DNA of 38,749 bases from a virus (Duplodnaviria; Heunggongvirae; Uroviricota; Caudoviricetes). Position numbers and translations under genes: made by a program. Numbering within the stretch: position 1 is the first letter of the stretch; each line of letters begins with the position of its first letter. Shown piece after piece: positions 14,723-34,398 of this stretch. The notes below the pieces were generated by a model. The model had not been told where the DNA came from. It ran no database searches and was given only the letters and a program-made list of their open reading frames with translations. Location: the IMG/VR virus record IMGVR_UViG_2579778884_000012; one strand, given 5' to 3'.

Positions 14723-15070
14723 TCAACTCACAGGGATGGTTAACGAAAGTGGCTGGCCGGTGTCGTTGTGCTGGCCGGTTAACGTGACCGTCATTCGCCC
14801 GTCAAAACTGCGCTCAGTGGTGACGGATGACAGGGTGACGCGGGGTTCCCATTTCAGCACCGCCATGTAACAGGCGACCTTAATCTGCAACTCAAGCGCC
14901 GGGGTCTGCGGCTGGTCAATCATTGACGCCAGCAACGAGCCGTAATCACGACGCATCACCCGTGAGCCGACCGGTGTGCGCAGGATATCGCCGATACTCT
15001 GGCTGATATGCTCAAGGTCAGTGACAGTCAGGCCATCACTGCGATTCATTCCGAGATAACGCGCTGTCAT
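14723..15070 (-). CDS. W: Baseplate wedge protein gpW (gp25-like), 115 aa
   Basis: 115 aa equals P2 gpW; between V and J. Confidence 0.88.
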   Translation of the reverse strand: MTARYLGMNRSDGLTVTDLEHISQSIGDILRTPVGSRVMRRDYGSLLASMIDQPQTPALELQIKVACYMAVLKWEPRVTLSSVTTERSFDGRMTVTLTGQHNDTGQPLSLTIPVS

Positions 15071-15702
15071 AAAGGACTCCCGGTTGTGCCGCCGCTGTCG
15101 CCGGGGTGTTTATGGGTATGCAGTACCTTACCGTTTGATGAGAGTTCACCGCCGGTGTGTTCAATGTTGCCGCGCATCGTCCCGCCCTTCTGCACTTCCA
15201 GCGTGCCGGTGATCAGCTTGTTTGTGCAGACCACCTCCGGCGTGTCCAGAGTGATGCGGGTTGATGCTTTCACCATGACCACCGGCACCGTGGCAGTAAC
15301 AGAATCAGAAGCCGTCACGCTGGCCGTTTTAATTCCGCTTACCGTAAGCGCACTGGTTTCGGGTTCATACTCAATCACCGCCCCGTCAGGGAAACGGATA
15401 TGCAGGGCATCCGCCGACGCAGACGGCGCAGGGTTATCGCCGGAATAAATCCCCGGCAGAACGAACGCCGTGTCGAGTTCACCGCCCACGGCCAGAATCA
15501 GCACCTGTTCCCCCACGGAAGGTGCCCACCATGTGCGCGAACGTCCGGCGCGATGGGTCAGCCACTGAAGCCAGTCGGTGCACATGCCGCCGGTCTGCAC
15601 ACGGCAGCGACCGGCGTTAAGGTCGGTTTCAACGATAATGCCGGTACGAATCATGTTGCGCAGTGCGCGCGCGAGTTCCTGAATATTTGCGAGAGTGTCC
15701 AT
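15067..15702 (-). CDS. V: Baseplate spike protein gpV, 211 aa
   Basis: Starting at the internal Met (MDTLANIQELARALRNMIRTGIIVETD...) gives 211 aa, equal to P2 gpV. The track ORF carries a 6-codon extension. Confidence 0.85.
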   Translation of the reverse strand: MDTLANIQELARALRNMIRTGIIVETDLNAGRCRVQTGGMCTDWLQWLTHRAGRSRTWWAPSVGEQVLILAVGGELDTAFVLPGIYSGDNPAPSASADALHIRFPDGAVIEYEPETSALTVSGIKTASVTASDSVTATVPVVMVKASTRITLDTPEVVCTNKLITGTLEVQKGGTMRGNIEHTGGELSSNGKVLHTHKHPGDSGGTTGSPL

Positions 15703-15785
15703 GCATGTGAGATTGCACAATATATAAAAGTTATGCTATCTGGATTCATTTGTAGAACCACCAGACAACATTCAAGGAGAGCGTA

Positions 15786-16562
15786 ATGGTCAGCTATAAT
15801 GTGACTAATGTGTGGGAGCTAATCGTTTTGTATCTTTTGGTCTTTGCAGTATTAGCATTTTTTAGCTTTGGTAAAAGTAACCTTATGAGGCTTATTGCAC
15901 ATTATTTCAAATTTGGATATTCAGACAAAAAATTAAAAAGACTGGACCGCGAGTGGCGCGACATTCAACTATTTAAAATACTTAACGGAATCAATGTATC
16001 AGGCATCGAAGATGTGAGAATGATACAGCAGGGGCTGATTGATGGAAAACTAAAAACATCGGATTTTTTCCTTACTCGCTTCTGGGGAGACATAACAGAA
16101 CCGCCATGCATCACAAAAACAATGAGTGCAGTCCTGGCCGGAATTCTTTATATTATCTTCGCATGTTGCATACACAACGAGCAATCTGCCATAGTAGAGG
16201 ATGCCATAGCCATACCATATAAAAATATGATGTACCATGTTTATAATGACAAGGTTCTTTTGTTCTCCGACAATAAAACAGATAAGTTCTATAAAGCTTT
16301 TAGCATTGCCGATTGCAAGAGACTGCAGAACACTTTTGTAACAGACACACTTCCTGCAATCGCCTGCAATAAGCTCTTACAGCTAAACGAGGAGGACTCC
16401 GAATGGTTAAGTCAGGAGATTAAAGATAATAACAGCCACAGAAAAACATTATTAATAATATCCCTAATCTATTTCATTTCAGGTGCGTATTTTCATGAAA
16501 GGAGATCACTCAATAACTTCCATCGAGATCGGGTAATAACATTTGAACAGATCGCTGAATAA
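15786..16562 (+). CDS. Hypothetical integral membrane protein (accessory gene at the orf30 position), 258 aa as it stands
   Basis: AT-rich ORF on the strand opposite the late genes, with a good RBS (AAGGAGAGCGTA ATG). Three predicted hydrophobic helices (about residues 12-29, 114-130, 230-245). Its last seven codons and stop lie inside the inferred IS terminal repeat. Confidence 0.65.
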   Translation: MVSYNVTNVWELIVLYLLVFAVLAFFSFGKSNLMRLIAHYFKFGYSDKKLKRLDREWRDIQLFKILNGINVSGIEDVRMIQQGLIDGKLKTSDFFLTRFWGDITEPPCITKTMSAVLAGILYIIFACCIHNEQSAIVEDAIAIPYKNMMYHVYNDKVLLFSDNKTDKFYKAFSIADCKRLQNTFVTDTLPAIACNKLLQLNEEDSEWLSQEIKDNNSHRKTLLIISLIYFISGAYFHERRSLNNFHRDRVITFEQIAE

Positions 16563-16676: not shown

Positions 16677-18218
16677 ATGCCAACAGTTCCAATTTCTATG
16701 AGAAAACTTAAAGAAATTCTTAGGCTTAAATACGGTGTTGGACTCAGCCATCGACAAATTGGTCGTAGTCTTGCAATCTCCCCTTCCGTTGTATCCAGAT
16801 ATGCTAATCGGGCGGCTCAACTTGGCATAAAGCAGTGGCCCTTACCTACAGGATGGGATGATACAAAACTAAAACATGCGTTCCTTCAGACCCAGGTTAA
16901 GATGAAGAAGCACTCTCTGCCTGACTGGGCTACAGTACACCGGGAACTGCGTAATAAATGCGTGACGCTGCAGCTACTCTGGGAAGAATACTGTGAGCGT
17001 AATCCAGGCGGTTTTTACAGCTATAACCATTACTGCCGGATGTACCGTGAATGGCTCAAAACCACTTCACCATCAATGCGTCAGGTACATAAAGCTGGCG
17101 AAAAACTTTTCGTTGATTACTGTGGACCTACCGTTGGCGTTACCGACCCTGAGACCGGAGAAATAAGAACTGCTCAGGTCATCGTAGCTGTTCTCGGGGC
17201 ATCAAGTTACACATGGGCAGAGGCCACCTGGTCTCAGCAGCTTGAAGACTGGGTGATGAGTCATGTTCGCTGCTTCCAGTGGTTGGGTGGCGTTCCTGAA
17301 CTTGTTGTTCCGGACAATCTGAAAAGCGCCACATCCAGGGCATGTAAGTATGATCCTGACGTTAACCCTACCTACCAGCAGATGCTTGAGCATTATAATG
17401 TCGCAGTTTTGCCTGCGCGGCCACGTAAACCGAAAGATAAAGCCAAAGCTGAAGTTGGCGTTCAGGTTGTTGAACGCTGGATCATGGCCCGAATCAGGCA
17501 TGAGATCTTCTACAGCCTTGCATCGCTTAATCAGCGCATTCGGGAGTTGCTGGAAAGACTGAATAACAAAATAATGCAGAAGTTGGGTTATTCACGTGCA
17601 GAACTCTTCATCCAGCTTGATAAACCCGCACTGAAGCCTCTTCCTGAAGCCAGTTACAGTTACACCCTGGTGAAGAAAGTCAGAGTTCATGCCGATTACC
17701 ACGTGGAAATCGACAAACATTACTACTCGGTTCCATGTTCGCTGTTAGGCCAGCAACTGGAAGCATGGATCTCCGGAGAACTGGTAAGACTCTTCAATCA
17801 GGGGCAGGAGGTTGCTGTGCACCCGCGCAAGCGTACTTATGGCTACAGTACCCGCAACGAGCACATGCCTGAAGCTCATCGACAGCATGCCACCTGGACG
17901 CCAGAGCGTCTTCTGGAATGGGCGGGGCACATAGGCAGTGAAACTCATAGTTATGTGCTTCATATACTGAACTCTCGTCCACATCCGGAACAAAGCTATC
18001 GCTTCTGCCTTGGACTCCTGAACCTTCATAAAAAATACAGTAAAGCCAGACTTAATGCAGCATGTGCAAGAGCTCTGAAAACAAAGGTATGGCGTCTGTC
18101 AGGTATTAAATCGATCCTGGAAAAAGGTCTGGATAAACAACCTGTTCAGGATCCAAAACCAGATCTGTTATCCACGATGGAACACGAAAACGTACGCGGC
18201 AGTGAGTATTACCACTGA
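16677..18218 (+). CDS. istA: IS21-family transposase IstA, 513 aa
   Basis: N-terminal helix-turn-helix (LSHRQIGRSLAISPSVVSRY), central DDE-type integrase-like region, followed 12 bp later by istB; typical IS21 layout. Confidence 0.85.
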   Translation: MPTVPISMRKLKEILRLKYGVGLSHRQIGRSLAISPSVVSRYANRAAQLGIKQWPLPTGWDDTKLKHAFLQTQVKMKKHSLPDWATVHRELRNKCVTLQLLWEEYCERNPGGFYSYNHYCRMYREWLKTTSPSMRQVHKAGEKLFVDYCGPTVGVTDPETGEIRTAQVIVAVLGASSYTWAEATWSQQLEDWVMSHVRCFQWLGGVPELVVPDNLKSATSRACKYDPDVNPTYQQMLEHYNVAVLPARPRKPKDKAKAEVGVQVVERWIMARIRHEIFYSLASLNQRIRELLERLNNKIMQKLGYSRAELFIQLDKPALKPLPEASYSYTLVKKVRVHADYHVEIDKHYYSVPCSLLGQQLEAWISGELVRLFNQGQEVAVHPRKRTYGYSTRNEHMPEAHRQHATWTPERLLEWAGHIGSETHSYVLHILNSRPHPEQSYRFCLGLLNLHKKYSKARLNAACARALKTKVWRLSGIKSILEKGLDKQPVQDPKPDLLSTMEHENVRGSEYYH

Positions 18219-18229
18219 TACGGGATCCA

Positions 18230-18979
18230 ATGATGAATCATCTTTACGAACAACTGACCGCACTTAAACTCACCGGCTTCCGTGATGCGCTTAAAAAGCA
18301 ACTTGCTCAACCGGGCACATACCAGGAGCTGGGCTTCGAAGAACGCCTGTCATTACTGACAGCAGAAGAACTAACCTGCCGTGAAAACAGGAAGGCAGAG
18401 CGTCTGATCAAACATGCACGGTTCAGACTTAATGCTGAGTTATCAAAGCTGGATTATCGTAACAATAGAGGGCTGGACAGGGCCCTCATCCGTTCACTCA
18501 GTCAGGGAAACTGGTTAACCCTGAAACAAAATATTTTACTGACCGGGGCCACCGGCAGCGGTAAAACGTTCCTGGCATGTGCACTTGGTCATAATGCCTG
18601 CCGACAGGGATACAAGGTCTACTATTATCGCCTTAAAGCGCTGATGGAACAGTGCTATCAGGGGCATGCTGATGGAAGATACAGCAAACTTTTGACCAGG
18701 CTGAATAATAGCGATCTGCTGCTTCTGGATGACTGGGGGCTGGAACCTCTCTCATCAGAACAGCGTAGCGACCTGCTGGAAATAGTGGATCTGATGTACC
18801 AACGAGGCTCAATCATCGTAGTGAGCCAGTTGCCGGTGGAAAACTGGTACAAAATGATCGGAGACTCCACACATGCGGATGCCATCCTAGATCGACTGGT
18901 TCATGGCAGTATCAAGATCGAACTTAAAGGAGAATCAATGCGGAAAATACAATCTCCGTTGACCGAAGGAGATCAGTGA
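18230..18979 (+). CDS. istB: IS21-family ATP-binding helper protein IstB, 249 aa
   Basis: Walker A motif GATGSGKT and Walker B LLLLDDWG; DnaC-like AAA+ fold typical of IstB. Confidence 0.88.
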   Translation: MMNHLYEQLTALKLTGFRDALKKQLAQPGTYQELGFEERLSLLTAEELTCRENRKAERLIKHARFRLNAELSKLDYRNNRGLDRALIRSLSQGNWLTLKQNILLTGATGSGKTFLACALGHNACRQGYKVYYYRLKALMEQCYQGHADGRYSKLLTRLNNSDLLLLDDWGLEPLSSEQRSDLLEIVDLMYQRGSIIVVSQLPVENWYKMIGDSTHADAILDRLVHGSIKIELKGESMRKIQSPLTEGDQ

Positions 18980-25429: not shown

Positions 25430-25602
25430 TGTCAGGAGTCCTGAATAGTGATTAGAGGAGTCACATGTCGGCATCAGTTTCCCGACGATGCGCATCCTCC
25501 GCCATCAGTCCCGGATGGCTTATCACTGACACAACAGCACCTTAGCGAATCGCGGGGCGCGACTCAGTAGCCTTGCCGTGTATTCATCACGGCGAGGTAT
25601 TC

Positions 25603-27375
25603 ATGACCATCACCACAGACACCACTCTTTTACACGACCCGCGTCGTCAGGCGGCGCTGCTGTACTGGCAGGGGTTTTCCGTGCCGCAGATTGCCGCCAT
25701 GTTGCAGATGAAACGCCCGACGGTGCAGAGCTGGAAACAGCGCGACGGCTGGGACAGCGTTGCCCCCATCAGCCGTGTCGAAATGAGTCTGGAAGCGCGG
25801 CTGACCCAGCTCATTATCAAACCGCAGAAAACCGGCGGTGACTTCAAGGAAATTGACCTGCTCGGACGCCAGATTGAACGACTGGCACGGGTAAACCGCT
25901 ACAGCCAGACCGGCAACGAGGCAGACCTTAATCCGAACGTCGCTAACCGCAACAAAGGCGGGCGGCGCAAACCGAAAAAGAATTTTTTCAGTGACGAGGC
26001 TATCGAAAAGCTGGAGCAGATTTTCTTTGAGCAGTCTTTCGACTATCAGTTGCACTGGTATCGCGCCGGGCTTGAGCACCGCATCCGCGATATCCTGAAA
26101 TCCCGCCAGATTGGCGCGACATTTTATTTTTCCCGCGAGGCGCTGCTGCGCGCCCTGAAAACCGGTCATAACCAGATTTTTCTGTCGGCCAGTAAAACGC
26201 AGGCGTATGTGTTCCGTGAATACATCATCGCCTTTGCCCGTCTGGTTGACGTTGACCTGACCGGTGACCCGATTGTCCTGGGCAATAACGGCGCAAAACT
26301 GATTTTTCTCGGCACCAACTCCAACACCGCACAGAGCCATAACGGTGACCTGTACGTCGACGAGATTTTCTGGATCCCAAATTTTCAGGTTCTGCGTAAG
26401 GTGGCATCAGGTATGGCCTCACAGAGTCACCTGCGCTCGACCTATTTCTCCACCCCGTCCACACTGGCGCACGACGCCTACCCGTTCTGGTCGGGTGAAC
26501 TGTTCAACCGGGGACGCGCCAGCGCCGCCGAACGTGTGGAAATCGACGTCAGTCATAACGCCCTTGCCGGTGGGCTTCTCTGTGCGGACGGCCAGTGGCG
26601 GCAGATTGTCACCATTGAGGACGCCCTGAAAGGTGGCTGCACACTGTTCGACATTGAGCAGCTCAAACGCGAAAACAGCGCCGACGATTTTAAAAACCTG
26701 TTCATGTGTGAATTTGTTGACGACAAGGCATCGGTGTTCCCGTTCGAGGAGCTGCAACGCTGCATGGTCGACACGCTGGAAGAATGGGAAGACTATGCAC
26801 CGTTTGCCGCCAATCCGTTCGGCTCCCGCCCGGTATGGATTGGTTACGACCCGTCACACCGTGGCGACAGCGCCGGATGCGTGGTGCTGGCACCGCCGGT
26901 GGTGGCCGGTGGCAAATTCAGGATACTTGAGCGTCACCAGTGGAAAGGCATGGACTTTGCCACCCAGGCTGAATCCATCCGCAAACTCACCGAAAAATAT
27001 AACGTCGAATACATCGGTATTGATGCCACCGGCCTCGGTGTCGGCGTGTTCCAGCTCGTGCGCTCGTTCTATCCCGCCGCGCGCGATATCCGCTACACAC
27101 CGGAAATGAAAACCGCAATGGTGCTCAAGGCAAAAGACGTTATCCGCCGTGGCTGTCTGGAATATGACGTCAGCGCCACCGACATCACCAGCTCGTTTAT
27201 GGCTATCCGCAAGACCATGACCAGCAGCGGACGCAGCGCCACCTATGAGGCCAGTCGCAGCGAGGAAGCCAGCCACGCCGACCTCGCCTGGGCGACCATG
27301 CACGCCCTGTTAAATGAGCCACTCACCGCCGGTATCAGCACCCCGCTGACATCCACCATTCTGGAGTTTTACTGA
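25603..27375 (+). CDS. P: Terminase large (ATPase) subunit gpP, 590 aa
   Basis: Internal Met gives MTITTDTTLLHDPRRQAALLYWQGFSVPQIAAM..., 590 aa as in P2 gpP; divergent from O. Confidence 0.9.
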   Translation: MTITTDTTLLHDPRRQAALLYWQGFSVPQIAAMLQMKRPTVQSWKQRDGWDSVAPISRVEMSLEARLTQLIIKPQKTGGDFKEIDLLGRQIERLARVNRYSQTGNEADLNPNVANRNKGGRRKPKKNFFSDEAIEKLEQIFFEQSFDYQLHWYRAGLEHRIRDILKSRQIGATFYFSREALLRALKTGHNQIFLSASKTQAYVFREYIIAFARLVDVDLTGDPIVLGNNGAKLIFLGTNSNTAQSHNGDLYVDEIFWIPNFQVLRKVASGMASQSHLRSTYFSTPSTLAHDAYPFWSGELFNRGRASAAERVEIDVSHNALAGGLLCADGQWRQIVTIEDALKGGCTLFDIEQLKRENSADDFKNLFMCEFVDDKASVFPFEELQRCMVDTLEEWEDYAPFAANPFGSRPVWIGYDPSHRGDSAGCVVLAPPVVAGGKFRILERHQWKGMDFATQAESIRKLTEKYNVEYIGIDATGLGVGVFQLVRSFYPAARDIRYTPEMKTAMVLKAKDVIRRGCLEYDVSATDITSSFMAIRKTMTSSGRSATYEASRSEEASHADLAWATMHALLNEPLTAGISTPLTSTILEFY

Positions 27376-28409
27376 TGAGCAAGAAAAAAGGGAAAACACC
27401 GCAACCTGCGGTGAAAACAATGACCGCCAGCGCCCCGAAAATGGAGGCATTCACCTTTGGTGAGCCGGTGCCGGTACTCGACCGCCGTGACATTCTGGAT
27501 TACGTCGAGTGCATCAGTAACGGCAGATGGTATGAGCCACCGGTCAGCTTTACCGGTCTGGCAAAAAGCCTGCGTGCTGCCGTACATCACAGCTCACCGA
27601 TTTACGTCAAACGTAATATTCTGGCTTCAACGTTTATTCCGCACCCGTGGCTTTCCCAGCAGGATTTCAGCCGCTTTGTGCTGGATTTTCTGGTGTTCGG
27701 TAATGCGTTTCTGGAAAAGCGTTACAGCACCACCGGTAAGGTTATCAGGCTGGAAACCTCACCGGCAAAATATACCCGCCGTGGCGTGGAGGAGGATGTT
27801 TACTGGTGGGTGCCGTCCTTCAACGAGCCGACAGCCTTCGCGTCCGGCTCCGTGTTTCACCTGCTGGAGCCGGATATTAATCAGGAGCTGTACGGCCTGC
27901 CGGAATATCTCAGCGCCCTTAACTCTGCCTGGCTGAATGAGTCGGCCACGCTGTTCCGCCGCAAGTATTACGAAAATGGCGCACATGCTGGATACATCAT
28001 GTACGTCACCGATGCCGTGCAGGATCGCAACGATATCGAAATGCTTCGCGAAAACATGGTGAAGTCGAAAGGCCGCAATAACTTTAAAAATCTGTTTCTC
28101 TATGCCCCACAGGGGAAAGCCGACGGCATTAAAATTATCCCCCTCAGTGAAGTGGCGACGAAGGACGATTTTTTTAATATCAAAAAAGCCAGCGCCGCTG
28201 ACCTGCTGGACGCGCACCGCATCCCCTTTCAGTTGATGGGTGGCAAGCCGGAGAACGTCGGGTCGCTGGGTGATATTGAGAAAGTGGCAAAGGTCTTTGT
28301 CCGCAATGAGCTTATCCCGTTACAGGACAGGATCCGCGAGATAAACGACTGGCTCGGTCAGGAGGTCATCCGCTTTAAAAACTACTCACTTGACACTGAC
28401 AACGGCTGA
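27375..28409 (+). CDS. Q: Portal protein gpQ, 344 aa
   Basis: 344 aa equals P2 gpQ; start overlaps the P stop (ATGA). Confidence 0.9.
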   Translation: MSKKKGKTPQPAVKTMTASAPKMEAFTFGEPVPVLDRRDILDYVECISNGRWYEPPVSFTGLAKSLRAAVHHSSPIYVKRNILASTFIPHPWLSQQDFSRFVLDFLVFGNAFLEKRYSTTGKVIRLETSPAKYTRRGVEEDVYWWVPSFNEPTAFASGSVFHLLEPDINQELYGLPEYLSALNSAWLNESATLFRRKYYENGAHAGYIMYVTDAVQDRNDIEMLRENMVKSKGRNNFKNLFLYAPQGKADGIKIIPLSEVATKDDFFNIKKASAADLLDAHRIPFQLMGGKPENVGSLGDIEKVAKVFVRNELIPLQDRIREINDWLGQEVIRFKNYSLDTDNG

Positions 28410-28570: not shown

Positions 28571-28589
28571 GTGCTTTCCCCGCCTCGCC
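28571..28589. other. cos cohesive-end site (19 nt)
   Basis: GTGCTTTCCCCGCCTCGCC is the reverse complement of the P2 cohesive end as I recall it (GGCGAGGCGGGGAAAGCAC), about 160 bp after Q as expected. Confidence 0.75.
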
Positions 28590-28827
28590 CGCCCGCTTCA
28601 TGGGGCGGTTTTAATGCAGTTGCATAGATACTATGGATCCGCACCAGTCCTGACCGCACGCAGCCTGAACGGACATCCCCGACGCATGCAAAAACATTCA
28701 CTTGTTGCATGCAACGGCTTATTTAATGACAAATCAACTTAAATTTACAAAATCCACAGGTATGGATACTTTGCGAACATGATAGGCTTACGAGAATTAT
28801 CGTGCCTGTTTTTGAACGGAGAAAGTT

Positions 28828-29769
28828 ATGCAAGGTGAAGTTGACGAACAGCAACCAAATGAGATTATTTCGGAGTTTGGATACTATCCAGTAGAAGTTA
28901 ACATTGAGACTGAACAATTTTCTTTGCGTACTTTACCCGGTCTTATTGAGAACGTGGAACGTATTAACAATGATAAAAACGTTGTTAATGGTTGGATATA
29001 CCCTGGGAATCGAAAGGTATATAACCTTAATGGTGACACATGCACAATGCCTTATAGTTACCGAGTATTCGGCATGCCCAAAACGCACACACTAAAATTA
29101 AAAAACACATCCTCGTTAGAAACTCTCAACTTTGTTGTGTGGTGCCTCTCTTTTTTCAAGGGTATAAGATTGACAACCACTGACGCTGGTTTTCTTGATG
29201 CAACCACTATCAAGCCCACTAAGTTAACCGACTTTATTCTCGTTGGATGCTCTGAAAAAGAAGTAATAGAGCTAGCACTTAACTATATAAAAGACAAACA
29301 AAAAGATGATCGCTCCATTAAAAGAATAGCTGCGGTGATACACTCCCTATTCCTGTCACATAACCCACTATACCTTTCCTTTGAGAAATTCCAGTATCTT
29401 TATATGGCTCTTGATTGCTGTTTTGCTATAGCATGGGATGAAAGGGATAAAGTCATTAAAGAGAAAAAACCATCTCATCAAAATAGAGTATATTGGATGT
29501 GCGAAAATTACGGTGTAAAAATCCCGTCATGGGCAACAGATGAATGTAATGTTTCAGTTATACGCAATGATAATTTTCATGAAGCCATTTTTAATGGGCA
29601 ACCGCTTGGTTTCTCTAGTATCAATGATTGTCAATATGGTAGCGATATATTGCTACAAATGCAGGCTCTGGTATGTCGTCTACTAGCGGCAATACTCTCT
29701 GTAAATGATCGTAAATATATCGCATCTACAATCAGCTCGATAGAGTACCATTCATTAAAATTAACTTAA
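28828..29769 (+). CDS. Hypothetical protein with C-terminal HEPN-like R-x4-H motif (accessory cargo at the old/tin position), 313 aa
   Basis: AT-rich ORF with RBS GGAGAAAGTT ATG. Residues 246-251 are R-N-D-N-F-H (CGC AAT GAT AAT TTT CAT, 29563..29580), the HEPN-type motif, about 60 residues from the C-terminus. Not P2 Old or Tin by size or sequence. Confidence 0.6.
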   Translation: MQGEVDEQQPNEIISEFGYYPVEVNIETEQFSLRTLPGLIENVERINNDKNVVNGWIYPGNRKVYNLNGDTCTMPYSYRVFGMPKTHTLKLKNTSSLETLNFVVWCLSFFKGIRLTTTDAGFLDATTIKPTKLTDFILVGCSEKEVIELALNYIKDKQKDDRSIKRIAAVIHSLFLSHNPLYLSFEKFQYLYMALDCCFAIAWDERDKVIKEKKPSHQNRVYWMCENYGVKIPSWATDECNVSVIRNDNFHEAIFNGQPLGFSSINDCQYGSDILLQMQALVCRLLAAILSVNDRKYIASTISSIEYHSLKLT

Positions 29770-30088
29770 TGCTAACGCCTCACTTCGCTCGTTGTTCAAC
29801 TCCGCCAGCCTGAAAACAAGTTTCACGACTGGCGGCGTTCTCTATCGTCTGCGTGGTGGTGGCGCAACTCTGGACTGACCGATATAGTTAAACCGCCCGT
29901 AATTATCCCAGACTATTTCGGCACACCCGACCAGCTCGTCAGGCGTCAGATTTTCGTTGACCATAATCTGCTGTAAACGGTGAACAATGGCCATCAACCT
30001 GACACTTTTGGTGTTATATGTGGTATCTCACATGAGATTACTGACCAAGGTGCATCTTGGTTGACTCATTTCATATCCATCCACACCA

Positions 30089-30769
30089 CTACATCTTTAT
30101 TGCATATTTATTAAAAGACGCCCAGTTCAATAAAAAAACATTATTCATATACCATTCAATATAATTTTTATTTTTAGATTGACTGTCAAGTAGCACACAA
30201 ACATCAACCTGTTTATCAATCAATTTTGCAATATAAACCACAAACTCAACACTCGAATATCTCTTTGTGCCTAGCAAATATAATATTTCATCTGACAAAT
30301 AATTAGACTCATGTGAAAAGACATTATCATTTAACAAAATCAACCCGCCAATCGAGTCATTTAAATCCAAAACATCCTTTGTTGCATTTATTTGCTTATT
30401 AGCTTCCTTAACTATCTTTGTTTTAATATTTTCATAAGCAAAGTTCATTATATCATTTCTAAATCGCTTTGAGTCTGGGTGTCTTTTTATCAACTCTTCT
30501 AAATGAATAGCACCATGCCAGTTTTTTGCAAGCCAACTATCAGTTTTAACCAACTCATTCAGTTTATCATTGACATTCTTGACCCTGTCAGAAAAAAGAC
30601 TTTTCATCTCCAAAATTATCTTTTTATTATCAATAAGATAATCTGCCATCTTGCGATTCTGACCATCCTTCATCCGGAACTTATGATGAATATCATCAAT
30701 AGAAATCCCTTTTTCATGCTCAACAATGAATCTCTTAACATTGTTTTCTAATTCGCTGTATTGTTTCAT
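30089..30769 (-). CDS. Hypothetical protein (accessory cargo), 226 aa, probably co-transcribed with the upstream DUF2158-like gene
   Basis: AT-rich Lys/Asn-rich ORF; start 27 bp after the small upstream gene's stop, with a GGGGGA RBS; no motif I recognise. Confidence 0.6.
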   Translation of the reverse strand: MKQYSELENNVKRFIVEHEKGISIDDIHHKFRMKDGQNRKMADYLIDNKKIILEMKSLFSDRVKNVNDKLNELVKTDSWLAKNWHGAIHLEELIKRHPDSKRFRNDIMNFAYENIKTKIVKEANKQINATKDVLDLNDSIGGLILLNDNVFSHESNYLSDEILYLLGTKRYSSVEFVVYIAKLIDKQVDVCVLLDSQSKNKNYIEWYMNNVFLLNWASFNKYAIKM

Positions 30770-30796
30770 ACTTTCCCCCGTGAATTTTATTATGAT

Positions 30797-30988
30797 TCAC
30801 TTACGTGGACGACAAAGCATACCACTTTTACTCTCTGCTATTTCCAGTAAATCAATGGAGAATGACTCCTCGTGCAAAACTCCTTCTTTATCATGCCAAA
30901 TACATTTAGCATGAGTTTCAGTAGAGTCAGATACAGTCATTTTAAATCCACCGCTTTTCAAACAAACAACATCTGCAGGCTTTAACAT
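30797..30988 (-). CDS. Small DUF2158 (YodC-like) family protein, 63 aa
   Basis: From the internal Met with RBS GGAGATAAAA ATG: MLKPADVVCLKSGGFKMTV...CIWHDKEGVLHEESFSIDLLE, matching the DUF2158 pattern (V-x-LKSGG-x-MTV ... C-x-W) as I remember it. Track ORF extended by 28 codons. Confidence 0.55.
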   Translation of the reverse strand: MLKPADVVCLKSGGFKMTVSDSTETHAKCIWHDKEGVLHEESFSIDLLEIAESKSGMLCRPRK

Positions 30989-31114
30989 TTTTATCTCCAA
31001 CATTTTTAAGTAATGCATTATAACATAATGATATTGACGTAGATTTAATGCATGCAACCATATAAAAAACAATCAATTACAGTCAAAACTACTTATACTG
31101 TATAGATGAGATCC

Positions 31115-33400
31115 TTACTCAAATTGATGCCAGAATCCCGACCACTCATCAGCGACCGGATACGTGAATTTTTTCCCGTCATAATTTACGGTCGCGCCAC
31201 GCGCCAGCGCCTCAAGCTCCCATCGCTGCGGCCTGATACCGTTCTGAGCAAGGTCAACGCGGATACGGGTGATTTGCAATCGTTCAGACCGGGTCAGTCT
31301 GGCCGATGGCGCTATTTCATGCGGTTTTAACGGGCTTCCGTTTCTTTGCTGACGGTTTGGTCTTCTCAGGCCGTGTTTTAATGCACCTCTGAGCGCCCTC
31401 ACGACCTCCGGGTCATTCCATTCGATAACACCGTCATCTACCAGATTAAGCACTGCTGCGGCGTGCTCAGAAGGTGTGGGAGCCGGTAACGAAGTATCAC
31501 CACCGGTGAGCTTTCCACAGTTATTGACAGGACTCCGAGGCGCGGCGATGCCGCTTTTTAAAGTCAAAGGCTCAACGACCGGCACTTTCGGAACAATGCG
31601 CCAGTCCGTCGTTCTGGTGATATGAATATGACGCGCGCCGAGATGCGGCGCGTAAATGCCGACCACTCTCTCGACTTCTTCCTCGTACTCGTTAACGTCA
31701 TCCGACGGGCTACGGGCGACCCTGACAGTCTGACAATCGCGCGGGACATTTGCCCCGCCCTGCGCGCTGATATACAACGCAAAATCACCACTGTCTGCAG
31801 CGGCGCGTGCAGCCTCGACGCGCTCGTCAAACTCATCAGCAATGCTGACGCCGCGAGGCAATTTGCGTAGTTCACGGTAAGCCCCCATTGTCGGCAGGCC
31901 AACCGTTTTAAATTGCGGAATGCGCCACGTTGACGCCCATGCGGTAACAGCCGCGGCAGTGTCTTTCAGCGGCCTGCCGGTATCGTTATCGAGCTGACCA
32001 TCCAGTGCATAGCCATCGATGTTTTTTGAGATGTATTTCGCGATATACCCTGCAGCACCGCCCCGGTTAAGGTGTTTTGCCTGAAAACGGTTTCGCGCAG
32101 CTCCTCTTTCGTCGCCATCCTCTTTGAGCGCGTAGCGACGCATGATTTCAATAATCTGGTTACGCTGGCGTGGATTACAAAAAAGCATCATATGCCAGTG
32201 CGGCGTTCCGTCGTGGTGTGGCTCGACGACTCGCAAACCGTAGACCTGTAAATCATTATCCTTGAATGCCGTGCGCATCAGGCTCCAGATACGGCAGAGA
32301 TAACGCTGCGCATCCTTTGGATTAAATGCCTCATCGTTCCAGCCGTGATTAAGCTGAACGGTTTTACTTTCGCCTTTTCCGACCTGACGTGTCGGGTGAT
32401 ACTTTGACGGCGCGGTCAGCGTGATAAACATCCCCACATCACCCTCTGCGGCGGCGTAACGCTCAATACCGGCAATGGTGTTCATCAGCTCCATCCGGCG
32501 AATTTCAGGATTAGAAATACTGCCCATCACCTTACTGATAAGGTCGATGCGTTCGCCGGTTTCCCTGTTTTCAAGGTCACACGATTTAAGAAACTCCAGA
32601 TTTGCCTGGCGGCGCGCACGCACATCACGAATGGCATGTTTACTGGCATAAGGAGAACGGTCTTTATTGACCTCCCCGACAGCAATCAGTAACGCCTCAT
32701 GCCAGCGCATACGCTGGCCTTTAAGCTGATGAGTCCACCACTCATCGTTAAACAGACGGGCAATGGCAGAATATGCCTGCCTCGTGGTTATCTGTCCTTT
32801 ACGGTATTTTTTCCAGTAGAGCGGGGAAATATTGAAAGCACGTGCAGCGCCAGCAACATGACCATACAGGTGAGTCTGCGCCTCATCCGTAAACAGCGAT
32901 TCTTTTTCGCCATGTGCATCAACCCATGCATCGCAGAGTTCCTCATACATCATGAAAAGCTGCGATGAGATACGGGCGGCAAACTTTTTCAGCTCCTTGT
33001 CATTCATTCCAGGCAGGCGCGCATAGTGGTCACGCTCTGCCAGAAATAGCAACGACGCGTCGGTGTTCATTTCATGGCGCTGATTCACGCGCTCAATGCG
33101 CGGCCATAAACGACGCTGAAAAGTAGATGTGAGGAAATAAAACCCGTGCACCGGGCTTTTATTGCGCCGGATGTAGTCATAGCGTGAAGTAAACAGCGAG
33201 CGCAAAAAGTAAGGCAGGCGGTTAATCGTGGATAAAACACCTTGCACCTGACGCATCTCGTCACGTGTAAGGGGTCTTTCGCGCCCGACGGCCTCGCGTG
33301 GCGCGTTCCATGCATAAGCACCGGTAAACGCCTTACCGGTGCCTGCAGCAAATGCTGACGGAGGTACGCAGGTGTATTGCTCCTGGAAAGAATGACTCAT
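31115..33400 (-). CDS. A: Replication initiation protein gpA (rolling-circle endonuclease), 761 aa
   Basis: 761 aa equals P2 gpA; position after the early small ORFs. Confidence 0.9.
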   Translation of the reverse strand: MSHSFQEQYTCVPPSAFAAGTGKAFTGAYAWNAPREAVGRERPLTRDEMRQVQGVLSTINRLPYFLRSLFTSRYDYIRRNKSPVHGFYFLTSTFQRRLWPRIERVNQRHEMNTDASLLFLAERDHYARLPGMNDKELKKFAARISSQLFMMYEELCDAWVDAHGEKESLFTDEAQTHLYGHVAGAARAFNISPLYWKKYRKGQITTRQAYSAIARLFNDEWWTHQLKGQRMRWHEALLIAVGEVNKDRSPYASKHAIRDVRARRQANLEFLKSCDLENRETGERIDLISKVMGSISNPEIRRMELMNTIAGIERYAAAEGDVGMFITLTAPSKYHPTRQVGKGESKTVQLNHGWNDEAFNPKDAQRYLCRIWSLMRTAFKDNDLQVYGLRVVEPHHDGTPHWHMMLFCNPRQRNQIIEIMRRYALKEDGDERGAARNRFQAKHLNRGGAAGYIAKYISKNIDGYALDGQLDNDTGRPLKDTAAAVTAWASTWRIPQFKTVGLPTMGAYRELRKLPRGVSIADEFDERVEAARAAADSGDFALYISAQGGANVPRDCQTVRVARSPSDDVNEYEEEVERVVGIYAPHLGARHIHITRTTDWRIVPKVPVVEPLTLKSGIAAPRSPVNNCGKLTGGDTSLPAPTPSEHAAAVLNLVDDGVIEWNDPEVVRALRGALKHGLRRPNRQQRNGSPLKPHEIAPSARLTRSERLQITRIRVDLAQNGIRPQRWELEALARGATVNYDGKKFTYPVADEWSGFWHQFE

Positions 33401-34398
33401 TCACATACACCGGCATAGACACTACTGCAAACTGACTTATCATTCACCGAAGCCAGCAAATCAAACTGTGCCCCGCCACGCGTGGTCATCGCCCAGTCAC
33501 GATAAGACTCAATTCCGTAAGCATCGACAGTAATAATATCAATGCGGCGTTCCGCACGACGCGGGTCATGAGTTGACGGGAAGAAAGTAGAATTTCCGCG
33601 TCTGGAGCATGCGGCGACAAGTCGCTCCCATTCCGCAACACGCTTAACCTCTTCCGGCCAGCGACTAAAAATTTCAGCTAATTCAGACTTTCTGGCGTGG
33701 ATGCAGGGCATACAACCGACACGACTGCATCCCTGCTGGTATAACGGATTAGGTTTAATTCCATGACGTCTTGCAAATGCAAATACCTCCTCATGCGTCC
33801 AGTTCAGAATAGGACGGTATACATGGAGCCCGGGCGTATTGTCCGCATCCTCTTCCCAGGCAGGCAGACCCGCGCGCGCAGGAGACTCCTGAGCGCGAAT
33901 CCCCTGCCAGCTAATTACCTCATCAAACTCATTAAGCGCAGGTAACACGACCTGAGTACGTACTGGCTCATGTTTAAGGTCAAAAGTGCAAAATCTGGCT
34001 TTAGTGGAAGGAAATCGCCCTTTCCACATGCACAAATCAAGAAATGGGATACCAGTAGGCTTGAGAATTTCCAGCGCACAATTGATGCGCTCTGCCGCTT
34101 CCCCCGGAGACATTCCGCACTCTTCAACCAGAGAAACAGGCCATTTCTCAGCAATAAACTTGCGCTTACCTTCAATCTGTCGGGAGAAGTCAGCTTTAAC
34201 CCGTTTAACCGGCCCGAGTCGGTTCTCCAGATAATCGAGATACTCCATTGTCTGCGGATGCTCATGCCCGGTGTCTGCAAAAACCGGCAAAAAAATGCAC
34301 ACCGCTTTCAATACCAACAAGCCATTGAGCAAGGCTATCCTTTCCGCCAGAAACAGAAATAATATTGATAGAGCTTTCAGCTCGGCAGCGGGTATCAA
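33397..34398 (-). CDS. PAPS reductase-like (adenine nucleotide alpha-hydrolase superfamily) protein, up to 333 aa
   Basis: Resembles the phosphoadenosine phosphosulfate reductase family often annotated in prophage early regions; N-terminal 40 residues hydrophobic; overlaps the A start by 4 nt (ATGA). Family assignment is by eye, from memory. Confidence 0.5.
   Translation of the reverse strand: MIPAAELKALSILFLFLAERIALLNGLLVLKAVCIFLPVFADTGHEHPQTMEYLDYLENRLGPVKRVKADFSRQIEGKRKFIAEKWPVSLVEECGMSPGEAAERINCALEILKPTGIPFLDLCMWKGRFPSTKARFCTFDLKHEPVRTQVVLPALNEFDEVISWQGIRAQESPARAGLPAWEEDADNTPGLHVYRPILNWTHEEVFAFARRHGIKPNPLYQQGCSRVGCMPCIHARKSELAEIFSRWPEEVKRVAEWERLVAACSRRGNSTFFPSTHDPRRAERRIDIITVDAYGIESYRDWAMTTRGGAQFDLLASVNDKSVCSSVYAGVCE

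Follow-up and report, generated by a model that had tools for sequence, protein, structure and literature searches.

The gene ORF313 occupies positions 28828-29769 on the plus strand of a P2-like Escherichia coli prophage, IMG/VR record IMGVR_UViG_2579778884_000012, whose full 38,749 nucleotides (nt) are called the window here. It is an open reading frame (ORF) with an ATG start that encodes 313 amino acids (aa) plus a stop, and RefSeq lists the product as hypothetical protein WP_032179103. The full explanation that best accounts for the evidence, to which we assign a probability of roughly 0.55, is that ORF313 is a stand-alone HEPN-type abortive-infection RNase that is silenced by a sensor in its own N-terminal domain. 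An earlier examination of the letters alone (the sequence-only reading) had described the gene as a single-gene cargo module with its own ribosome-binding site and had seen the catalytic signature of HEPN RNases in residues 246-251. The ORF, its start, and its ribosome-binding site (GGAG, 28818-28821, plus strand, 6 nt before the ATG) stand as described, as does the string R-N-D-N-F-H at those residues.

The candidate HEPN catalytic motif, R246-N-D-N-F-H251, is encoded on the plus strand at 29563-29580 and is directly followed by E252. HEPN domains are defined by an Rx4-6H motif in which the arginine is followed by a polar residue (N, D, or H), with N being typical (Anantharaman et al., PMC3710099); ORF313 has N in this place. 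The sequence-only reading had cautioned that one such motif could be chance, and rightly so: among 20,000 shuffles of the ORF313 protein, 20% contained an Rx4H string, 50% an Rx4-6H string, and 1.7% an RNx3H string, so a single Rx4H is weak evidence. Family alignments carry more information. All 28 members of alignment A1, at 44-79% identity, retain R246, N247, H251, and E252, and in the 47 members of A2, at 23-48% identity, R246 is found in 46, N247 in 43, H251 in 47, and E252 in 41. The 88 members of A4 keep R246 in 84 cases and H251 in 83, with N247 and E252 at 89% or more each. Because the R-N-x3-H-E motif is near-invariant across the family, it is best regarded as a selected functional site and not as a chance string.

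Conservation extends well beyond the motif. The other near-invariant positions of the family are H87, G112, D135, E186, Y192, D196 (D or E), H217, R220, W235, G261, and R284, and W56, F81, and T86 are kept in at least 90% of A2. Across the 163 rows of the three alignments, position 196 is D or E in all but one and E186 is kept in all but two. Cysteine residues outside the motif are conserved among close relatives. A second string of the Rx5H type, R166 to H172 (residues 166-172, 29323-29343), lies in the first core helix and is also kept in close relatives. The family itself is large: a word-indexed search recovered 260 clusters (90% identity), all unnamed and with lengths of 305-330 aa in nearly every case, from Enterobacteriaceae, Providencia, Aeromonas, Acinetobacter, Pseudomonas, Stenotrophomonas, Lysobacter, and Rheinheimera, and an exhaustive profile search returned 649 clusters at 50% identity with E ≤ 1e-3, 441 of which had E ≤ 1e-10.

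The full-length AlphaFold2 (AF2) model of ORF313, with a predicted template modeling score (pTM) of 0.83, consists of a beta-rich N-terminal domain and a helical C-terminal domain. The N-terminal domain (residues 1-138, 28828-29241, plus strand) is predicted to contain strands at 13-18, 25-27, 31-35, 62-65, 71-74, and 87-91 and a helix at 97-111, and it had no significant fold relative in PDB or BFVD. The C-terminal domain (residues 139-313, 29242-29769, plus strand), modeled alone with a pTM of 0.81, is predicted to be all-alpha and HEPN-like, with helices at 161-176, 184-207, 217-228, 242-255, and 272-289. In the published description of HEPN domains (PMC3710099), four helices form an all-alpha core: helix 2 contributes an acidic residue, variable inserts may separate helix 2 from helix 3, and helix 3 ends in the motif, ahead of the loop that leads to helix 4. 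In the predicted structure of ORF313, helix 184-207 is taken to be helix 2 and contains both D196 and E186. Residues 208-240 form a variable helical insert between this second core helix and the helix with the motif, 242-255; a loop then leads to the final long helix, 272-289. The modeled topology of the C-terminal domain appears to match the published HEPN layout, with the motif at the place of the active site. The sequence-only reading had named the lack of a HEPN bundle, or a misplaced motif, as the result that would overturn it, and what the model predicts is a helical bundle with the motif helix ahead of the loop and final helix.

Structural comparison, which the sequence-only reading had proposed as a check, points in the same direction at low statistical weight. 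When the C-terminal domain was submitted to Foldseek, HepT/HEPN toxin chains (6m6u, 7bxo, 7ae2, 7ae8, 5yep, 8xdj, and 8xeh) made up 13 of the top 50 matches and held the highest TM-scores, at 0.36-0.44 (TMq) and 0.44-0.54 (TMt), compared with TMq values of 0.25-0.32 for generic four-helix bundles. Two of these structures, 5YEP and 7AE8, are the nearest structural relatives of the HEPN domain of ApeA according to the ApeA authors (bioRxiv 10.64898/2026.01.26.701840). The full-length model matched pentameric channels and nuclear-receptor domains in PDB, and these were judged to be shape artifacts. A PDB sequence profile search returned only the N-terminus of ribonucleotide reductase R2, with E about 0.01, a match judged to be chance because K and L stand at the R and H positions.

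The ApeA branch was compared through homologs of P0295, a protein labeled 'HEPN_Apea' that belongs to P4 hotspot system 19 (Rousset 2022 Table S1B); these are referred to as ApeA-like proteins. Alignment of the two profiles with hhalign gave one collinear alignment of 84-89 columns, covering ORF313 166-253 and ApeA-like 318-401, in which R166 pairs with R318 (invariant in the ApeA-like proteins), D196 with E347, R220 with R, W235 with W383, R246 with R394, and H251 with H399. A hidden Markov model (HMM) of the ORF313 C-terminal domain, run in HMMER, gave positive scores for 19 of 19 ApeA-like proteins, with the best eight at 9.2-12.2 bits, and single-comparison E-values of 5e-6 to 3e-5 for the top six, to be read with the caution that the tail of decoy scores was heavier than theoretically expected. 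No reversed decoy exceeded 3.0 bits, and no member of an unrelated HEPN family exceeded 2.2 bits; in the reverse search, the score was 10.7 bits, compared with 3.6 for the best decoy. The HMM alignment repeats the pairing of R220 with R, W235 with W383, R246 with R394, and H251 with H399, and it sets ALD196 against ALE347, the glutamate of which is invariant in ApeA-like proteins. Because the 19 sequences represent one family, the HMM result counts as a single observation.

Other HEPN comparisons by hhalign were less informative. Alignment to a single HEPN-TPR sequence from P4 gave no signal, and alignment to a RiboL-PSP-like HEPN family paired the motif alone, over 27 columns with P 0.025. 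Two annotated HEPN families compared with each other as a control scored even worse, which indicates that these thin profiles lack power. A homolog at 45% identity bears the UniRef label 'Apea-like HEPN domain-containing protein'. Taken with the predicted fold, we consider it likely that the C-terminal domain of ORF313 is a HEPN fold of remote ApeA-like ancestry.

The setting of the gene also suggests a role in defense. ORF313 lies between the portal gene gpQ (27375-28409, plus strand), which is preceded by the terminase gene gpP (25573-27375, plus strand), and the replication endonuclease gene gpA (31115-33400, minus strand). This gpQ-gpA interval is the site of old and tin in P2 and is a hotspot of anti-phage systems, including old, tin, and other validated defenses (Rousset 2022, PMC9122126). 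ORF313 is convergent with three minus-strand ORFs, with gpA beyond them. Its GC content is 0.37-0.38, compared with 0.52-0.59 in the flanking P2 core, as expected of AT-rich cargo, and dN/dS values of 0.15-0.34 among four alleles indicate a real gene under purifying selection. The cargo region of the window is 100% identical to that of strain 4/0 and eight other complete genomes among the matches listed. Old, tin, and the validated cargo of the hotspot (PMC9122126) share this locus and a moron-like AT-rich composition with ORF313, whereas the proteins are unrelated; ORF313 presumably shares their selective logic.

ORF313 is widespread and has been on record for some time. It was found in 99 of 5,426 complete E. 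coli genomes, in 97 of these at 80% coverage or more; the copies are all chromosomal and fall into three bands of identity, and there are relatives in Salmonella, Klebsiella, Aeromonas, Acinetobacter, and Pseudomonas. Its copies among the matches listed, at least 12, are all named 'hypothetical protein', and the protein is a member of PHROG 5937, function unknown. ORF313 of phage P2-EC67 is said to have been first listed by Odegrip in 2006. The record of that phage (AM157369, deposited 2006) contains ORF313 at 81% identity to the copy in the window, with ORF226 and ORF73 next to it.

In the hotspot survey, WP_032179103 itself is listed among the loci (Rousset 2022 Table S5), and system #11 of Table S5B, a one-gene system with 218 occurrences, no domain, and no comment, is the 11th commonest P2 hotspot cargo; its representative shares sequence strings with ORF313 and bears the equivalent motif RNENFH. 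The family is on record, yet it has no name, Pfam family, or defense-database model. A full-text literature search gave no match for WP_032179103, strings from ORF313 do not occur in the DefensePredictor supplements, and the literature searched held no report of a phage-protection test for the family. The follow-up study of 2026 confined its tests to unknown genes of P4 (PMC13586616). Two candidates from the survey that might have been mistaken for ORF313 were ruled out: the 'putative HEPN' of pFR103 is a different protein with DUF4209, and Rst_3HP ('hp+hp+hp', pFR109) comprises proteins of 337, 354, and 226 aa with visibly different sequences, and ORF313 has no PADLOC match.

Homologs of ORF313 occur on their own in a range of mobile elements, in two cases with defense genes no more than a few kb away. 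In other P2-like phages, the gene keeps its cos-adjacent position and orientation while its neighbors differ, which supports the view that it forms a single-gene module separate from the other cargo with which it converges at the old/tin hotspot. In Acinetobacter, a P22-like prophage carries a 45%-identical homolog (locus L012, 7001-7936) inserted between its portal and capsid genes in the opposite orientation, with a CHAT-domain protein and an AbiEi-like gene in the vicinity. The family therefore travels between unrelated types of phage as a moron. In a Pseudomonas aeruginosa integrative and conjugative element (ICE) region, some 3 kb separate the homolog from two Gabija-like genes, which encode an OLD-family ATPase-TOPRIM protein and a UvrD helicase; the Lysobacter homolog comes after an integrase, with a PIN_12 protein as its neighbor and a reverse transcriptase close by; in Pseudomonas viridiflava the gene lies in a resolvase/integrase element; in Buttiauxella it shares an island with HNH, SNase, and methylase genes; and in Aeromonas it occupies a chromosomal locus. 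Locations in defense hotspots or islands are thus represented by the P2 hotspot, the Gabija-like neighbor, the island with PIN_12 and reverse transcriptase, and the prophage moron. No partner gene was conserved across the window and ten other contexts, and for this reason a lone HEPN nuclease of this kind would have to regulate itself.

Alleles of ORF313 are mosaic. Between the window and P2-EC67, the upstream region is 98% identical (nt) and the N-terminal domain 96% identical (aa), whereas the C-terminal domain is 69% identical; the comparison with phage 613R3 gives 90% and about 69% for the two domains. The two stretches of lowest identity are residues 200-240, which correspond to the insert ahead of the motif helix, and residues 300-313. 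The upstream 198 nt keep 97-98% identity, and they do so even in an allele with only 73% identity in its coding sequence. The near-identity of the N-terminal domain beside a diverged C-terminal domain points to recombination near the domain boundary, and at the level of sequence this pattern would fit diversification of a nuclease domain.

The proposed mechanism begins with expression of ORF313 from its own promoter in a P2-like lysogen, giving a two-domain cargo protein. Its C-terminal domain would be a divergent, metal-independent HEPN endoribonuclease closest to the ApeA branch, with an active site made of R246, N247, and H251, aided by D196 or E186, and probably completed across a homodimer, as with other HEPN enzymes. 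The N-terminal domain, the obvious candidate sensor, would hold the nuclease silent until a cue of another phage's infection is sensed, upon which RNA cleavage would stop translation and abort the infection, which would spare the prophage and the lysogens as a population. The analogy of ApeA, DARNA, and PrrC suggests anticodon loops of tRNA as a possible target. RNase activity, dimerization, sensing by the N-terminal domain, the RNA target, and the defense phenotype are all things that we infer. If ORF313 is an active HEPN nuclease, a compact 313-aa design of sensor plus RNase joins the single-gene immune proteins, a new sensor domain is added, and an annotation gap is filled, as defense finders currently call this slot defense-less. 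A bolder and more tentative proposal is that ORF313 represents a new single-protein family of abortive-infection nucleases, in which a previously unseen beta-rich sensor for a phage-derived cue new to HEPN systems frees a highly divergent ApeA-like RNase, and in which the mosaicism reflects an arms race with phage inhibitors of the nuclease.

Several single-protein HEPN systems offer precedents for a nuclease with a separate sensing function, namely a ligand pocket in ApeA, a ssDNA-binding domain in DARNA, and a CBS domain in DS-11. ApeA (PF18739) is a single-protein abortive-infection tRNA anticodon nuclease (Gao 2020; bioRxiv 10.64898/2026.01.26.701840). Both ApeA and ORF313 are single genes with a HEPN-type domain, in ORF313 a candidate one, at the C-terminus and one or more separate domains upstream, both carry additional residues in the loop that follows the helix with the motif, and both types of gene occur in cos-proximal hotspots of P2-like phages or P4-like satellites; ORF313 is also weakly collinear with the ApeA-like P4 proteins over helix 2, the insert, and Rx4H. 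In contrast, ApeA proteins are about 460-580 aa long with three mainly helical domains (N-terminal, Mid, and split HEPN), whereas ORF313 has 313 aa and two domains, its beta-rich N-terminal domain is unrelated to ApeA, and the hhalign similarity is confined to the HEPN part. With this different architecture, no PF18739 hit, and no PADLOC ApeA match, ORF313 is not a member of the ApeA family as currently defined.

The HepT proteins (PDB 5yep, 7ae8, and 6m6u), minimal HEPN toxins from MNT-HEPN toxin-antitoxin pairs and the top structural matches of the C-terminal domain, share an RNxxxH-type motif with ORF313, which differs in its additional 138-residue N-terminal domain and inserts. DARNA (PD-T7-3) is a ssDNA-activated single-protein HEPN tRNase that acts by abortive infection (bioRxiv 10.64898/2026.02.22.705581), and it resembles ORF313 as a lone HEPN protein with a separate sensing domain, serving as a model for self-silencing. 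The order of domains is opposite, as the 456-aa DARNA has an N-terminal HEPN domain (R117x4H122) and a helical ssDNA-binding sensor at the C-terminus, and ORF313 had no PADLOC match to PD-T7-3. Tha (PMC11087260) is a tail-activated HEPN defense encoded by Staphylococcus aureus prophages; the lysogen expresses it, and a component of the infecting phage sets it off. With its other host and phage group, its likeness to ORF313 is by analogy only.

A number of results weigh against a HEPN nuclease and have to be set beside this evidence. ORF313 had no match in Pfam or in PADLOC (none at E ≤ 10), and its sole NCBIfam match scored far under the cut-off (15.5 bits compared with 243). Likewise, none of 161 family members searched against Pfam rose above threshold, with HEPN_RiboL-PSP appearing once at E 0.074 and HEPN_Apea once at E 0.15. 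Foldseek returned no match at E ≤ 0.001 in PDB or BFVD for either the full-length protein or the domain alone; the HepT toxins, despite their leading TM-scores, had nonsignificant E-values of 2-6, and for a helical bundle TM-scores near 0.5 are borderline. The motif region is also the less certain part of the prediction, where the predicted local distance difference test (pLDDT) score stays under 50 in the full-length model and is 57-75 when the domain is modeled alone. The hhalign comparison with ApeA-like proteins had P of 0.025-0.09, and its score was reached by 4 of 120 column shuffles and 5 of 120 block shuffles, while in the HMM comparison part of the score is supplied by the very motif that prompted the test. 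P0295 itself matches Pfam HEPN_Apea (PF18739) only at E 0.016, with 16 bits against a cut-off of 24.4, is not recognized as ApeA by PADLOC, and has no relative that was found in PDB, so its own HEPN assignment is borderline. This comparison family is absent from the systems tested in Rousset 2022, and the sequence and accession of ORF313 are absent from Table S2 of tested systems in that study, and system #11 is likewise missing from the systems tested there. The claim of a HEPN catalytic signature thus holds as far as a conserved site, a HEPN-like predicted topology, HepT toxins as best structural matches, and an HMM alignment with ApeA-like proteins, but it found no curated model or significant fold match.

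These shortfalls leave some room for a helical domain outside the HEPN superfamily, with the conserved R, N, H, and E serving another chemistry, such as metal-dependent hydrolysis or the binding of a ligand or nucleotide; the cargo function would then have nothing to do with RNA cleavage. The invariant H87, E186, H217, R220, and R284 could build a site of that kind, cysteines conserved in close relatives lie outside the motif as well, and a two-domain fold unmatched in PDB and BFVD, together with the lack of significant matches to curated HEPN models or solved HEPN structures, speaks for this explanation. It is nevertheless unlikely, as both the RNxxxH form and its position are canonical, HepT toxins are consistently the top structural matches, and the collinear HMM alignment with ApeA-like HEPN proteins extends to conserved positions beyond the motif. 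Were the motif to serve other chemistry, the family would be a new enzyme class on mobile elements.

Two further explanations concern the purpose of the protein. Many HEPN proteins are toxins of toxin-antitoxin pairs (PMC3710099), and ORF313 might be a HEPN toxin for prophage addiction or stabilization that is checked by an unrecognized antitoxin, whether an RNA, a host protein, or a phage protein; at locus L014, the homolog has a small Xre-type helix-turn-helix gene directly upstream. We regard addiction as distinctly unlikely, given that the window and ten other contexts hold no conserved neighbor and no adjacent MNT antitoxin gene of the kind that would place ORF313 in an MNT-HEPN pair. An RNA antitoxin or regulatory RNA also finds little room, with only 114 nt of upstream sequence specific to the cassette, no meaningful Rfam match upstream of ORF313, a nonsignificant z-score of -1.76 for upstream RNA folding, and no tandem repeats upstream other than a trivial 15-nt repeat within the backbone. 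Alternatively, ORF313 could serve the phage in another way, for instance by countering defenses, by interfering with related P2 phages or P4-like satellites, or by lysogenic conversion, with a domain that is catalytic or merely RNA-binding. The P2 hotspot does carry cargo of non-defense types, such as partition systems and a cytolethal distending toxin (PMC9122126), and the mosaicism of the C-terminal domain suggests an arms race of some kind. A P2-specific role would be insufficient because the family also occurs outside P2-like phages (the ICE region, islands, and the Aeromonas chromosomal locus), and strict conservation of the motif argues for catalysis; we consider a service to the phage of this other kind hardly probable. 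An abortive-infection RNase with its own sensor remains the explanation that we prefer.

Upstream of ORF313, the cos cohesive-end sequence GTGCTTTCCCCGCCTCGCC was read from the sequence at about 28571-28589, and a palindrome, GCATGCA-N15-TGCATGC, lies at the edge of the cos-side backbone at 28684-28712 (arms 28684-28690 and 28706-28712). With one mismatch allowed, such a palindrome is expected 0.07 times per window. The sequence-only reading had noted its inner part, ATGCAA-N13-TTGCAT, in the upstream region of the gene; this is present at 28686-28710, one base away from the position first given, but it belongs to shared backbone and is not specific to the gene. The full upstream region is found in 98 E. 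coli genomes, and its first 64 nt, including the palindrome, in 157 more. Since the palindrome sits in backbone that is present in these 157 genomes without the ORF313-specific upstream sequence, it is not regarded as a regulatory element of the gene, and its role as an ORF313 operator was rejected. In phage 613R3, the arms are kept and the spacer varies. Two of the 157 further genomes, at loci L019 (3253-4334) and L020 (3253-4428), match the window from the portal gene onward past cos as far as 28713 or 28742, where a different, unannotated sequence of 0.8 kb takes over; in total, about 1.1 kb between the portal gene and gpA is unannotated there. The palindrome could mark the boundary at which cassettes are exchanged or serve as a binding site related to cos.

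The cassette of ORF313 starts at about 28714, and the plus-strand region 28714-28827, which travels with the gene, therefore leaves 114 nt for a promoter. A promoter-like site, ATGACA-16-CAAAAT, is located there at 28726-28753 on the plus strand, identified by consensus match only. Downstream, an imperfect 20-nt inverted repeat (29798-29839), 75% complementary, lies between the convergent stop codons. Judged by its sequence it is a possible bidirectional terminator, and as it has no T-run, this function is put forward by inference only.

The three minus-strand ORFs that converge on ORF313 are a 51-aa ORF (29842-29997; PHROG 11386, unknown function), ORF226 (30089-30769; PHROG 20483, with no Pfam or PADLOC match), and a DUF2158 protein (30797-31072). 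RefSeq names the 51-aa ORF 'meiotically up-regulated 80 protein', which is clearly a spurious transfer. The start of the DUF2158 gene in RefSeq lies further in, giving 63 aa compared with 91 aa for the longest ORF. ORF226 and the DUF2158 gene (30089-31072, minus strand) make up a cargo of their own with two genes, listed as system #63 in Rousset 2022 (67 loci) and absent from the systems tested in that study. A partnership of ORF313 with this pair was rejected, as the pair is a system of its own, ORF313 has other neighbors elsewhere, and its distant homologs occur without the pair.

Elsewhere in the window, an IS21-family element lies on the plus strand within the minus-strand late (tail/baseplate) block, just past a gpV-like spike gene (15067-15720). 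It encodes IstA (16677-18218, plus strand), with rve and a Mu-transposase C-terminal domain, and IstB (18230-18979, plus strand), and a further ORF at 15786-16562 was noted along with it. The prophage may be disabled or rearranged at this element. Directly upstream of gpA is a PAPS-reductase-family gene (33397-34398, minus strand), for which RefSeq marks a frameshift in an identical genome.

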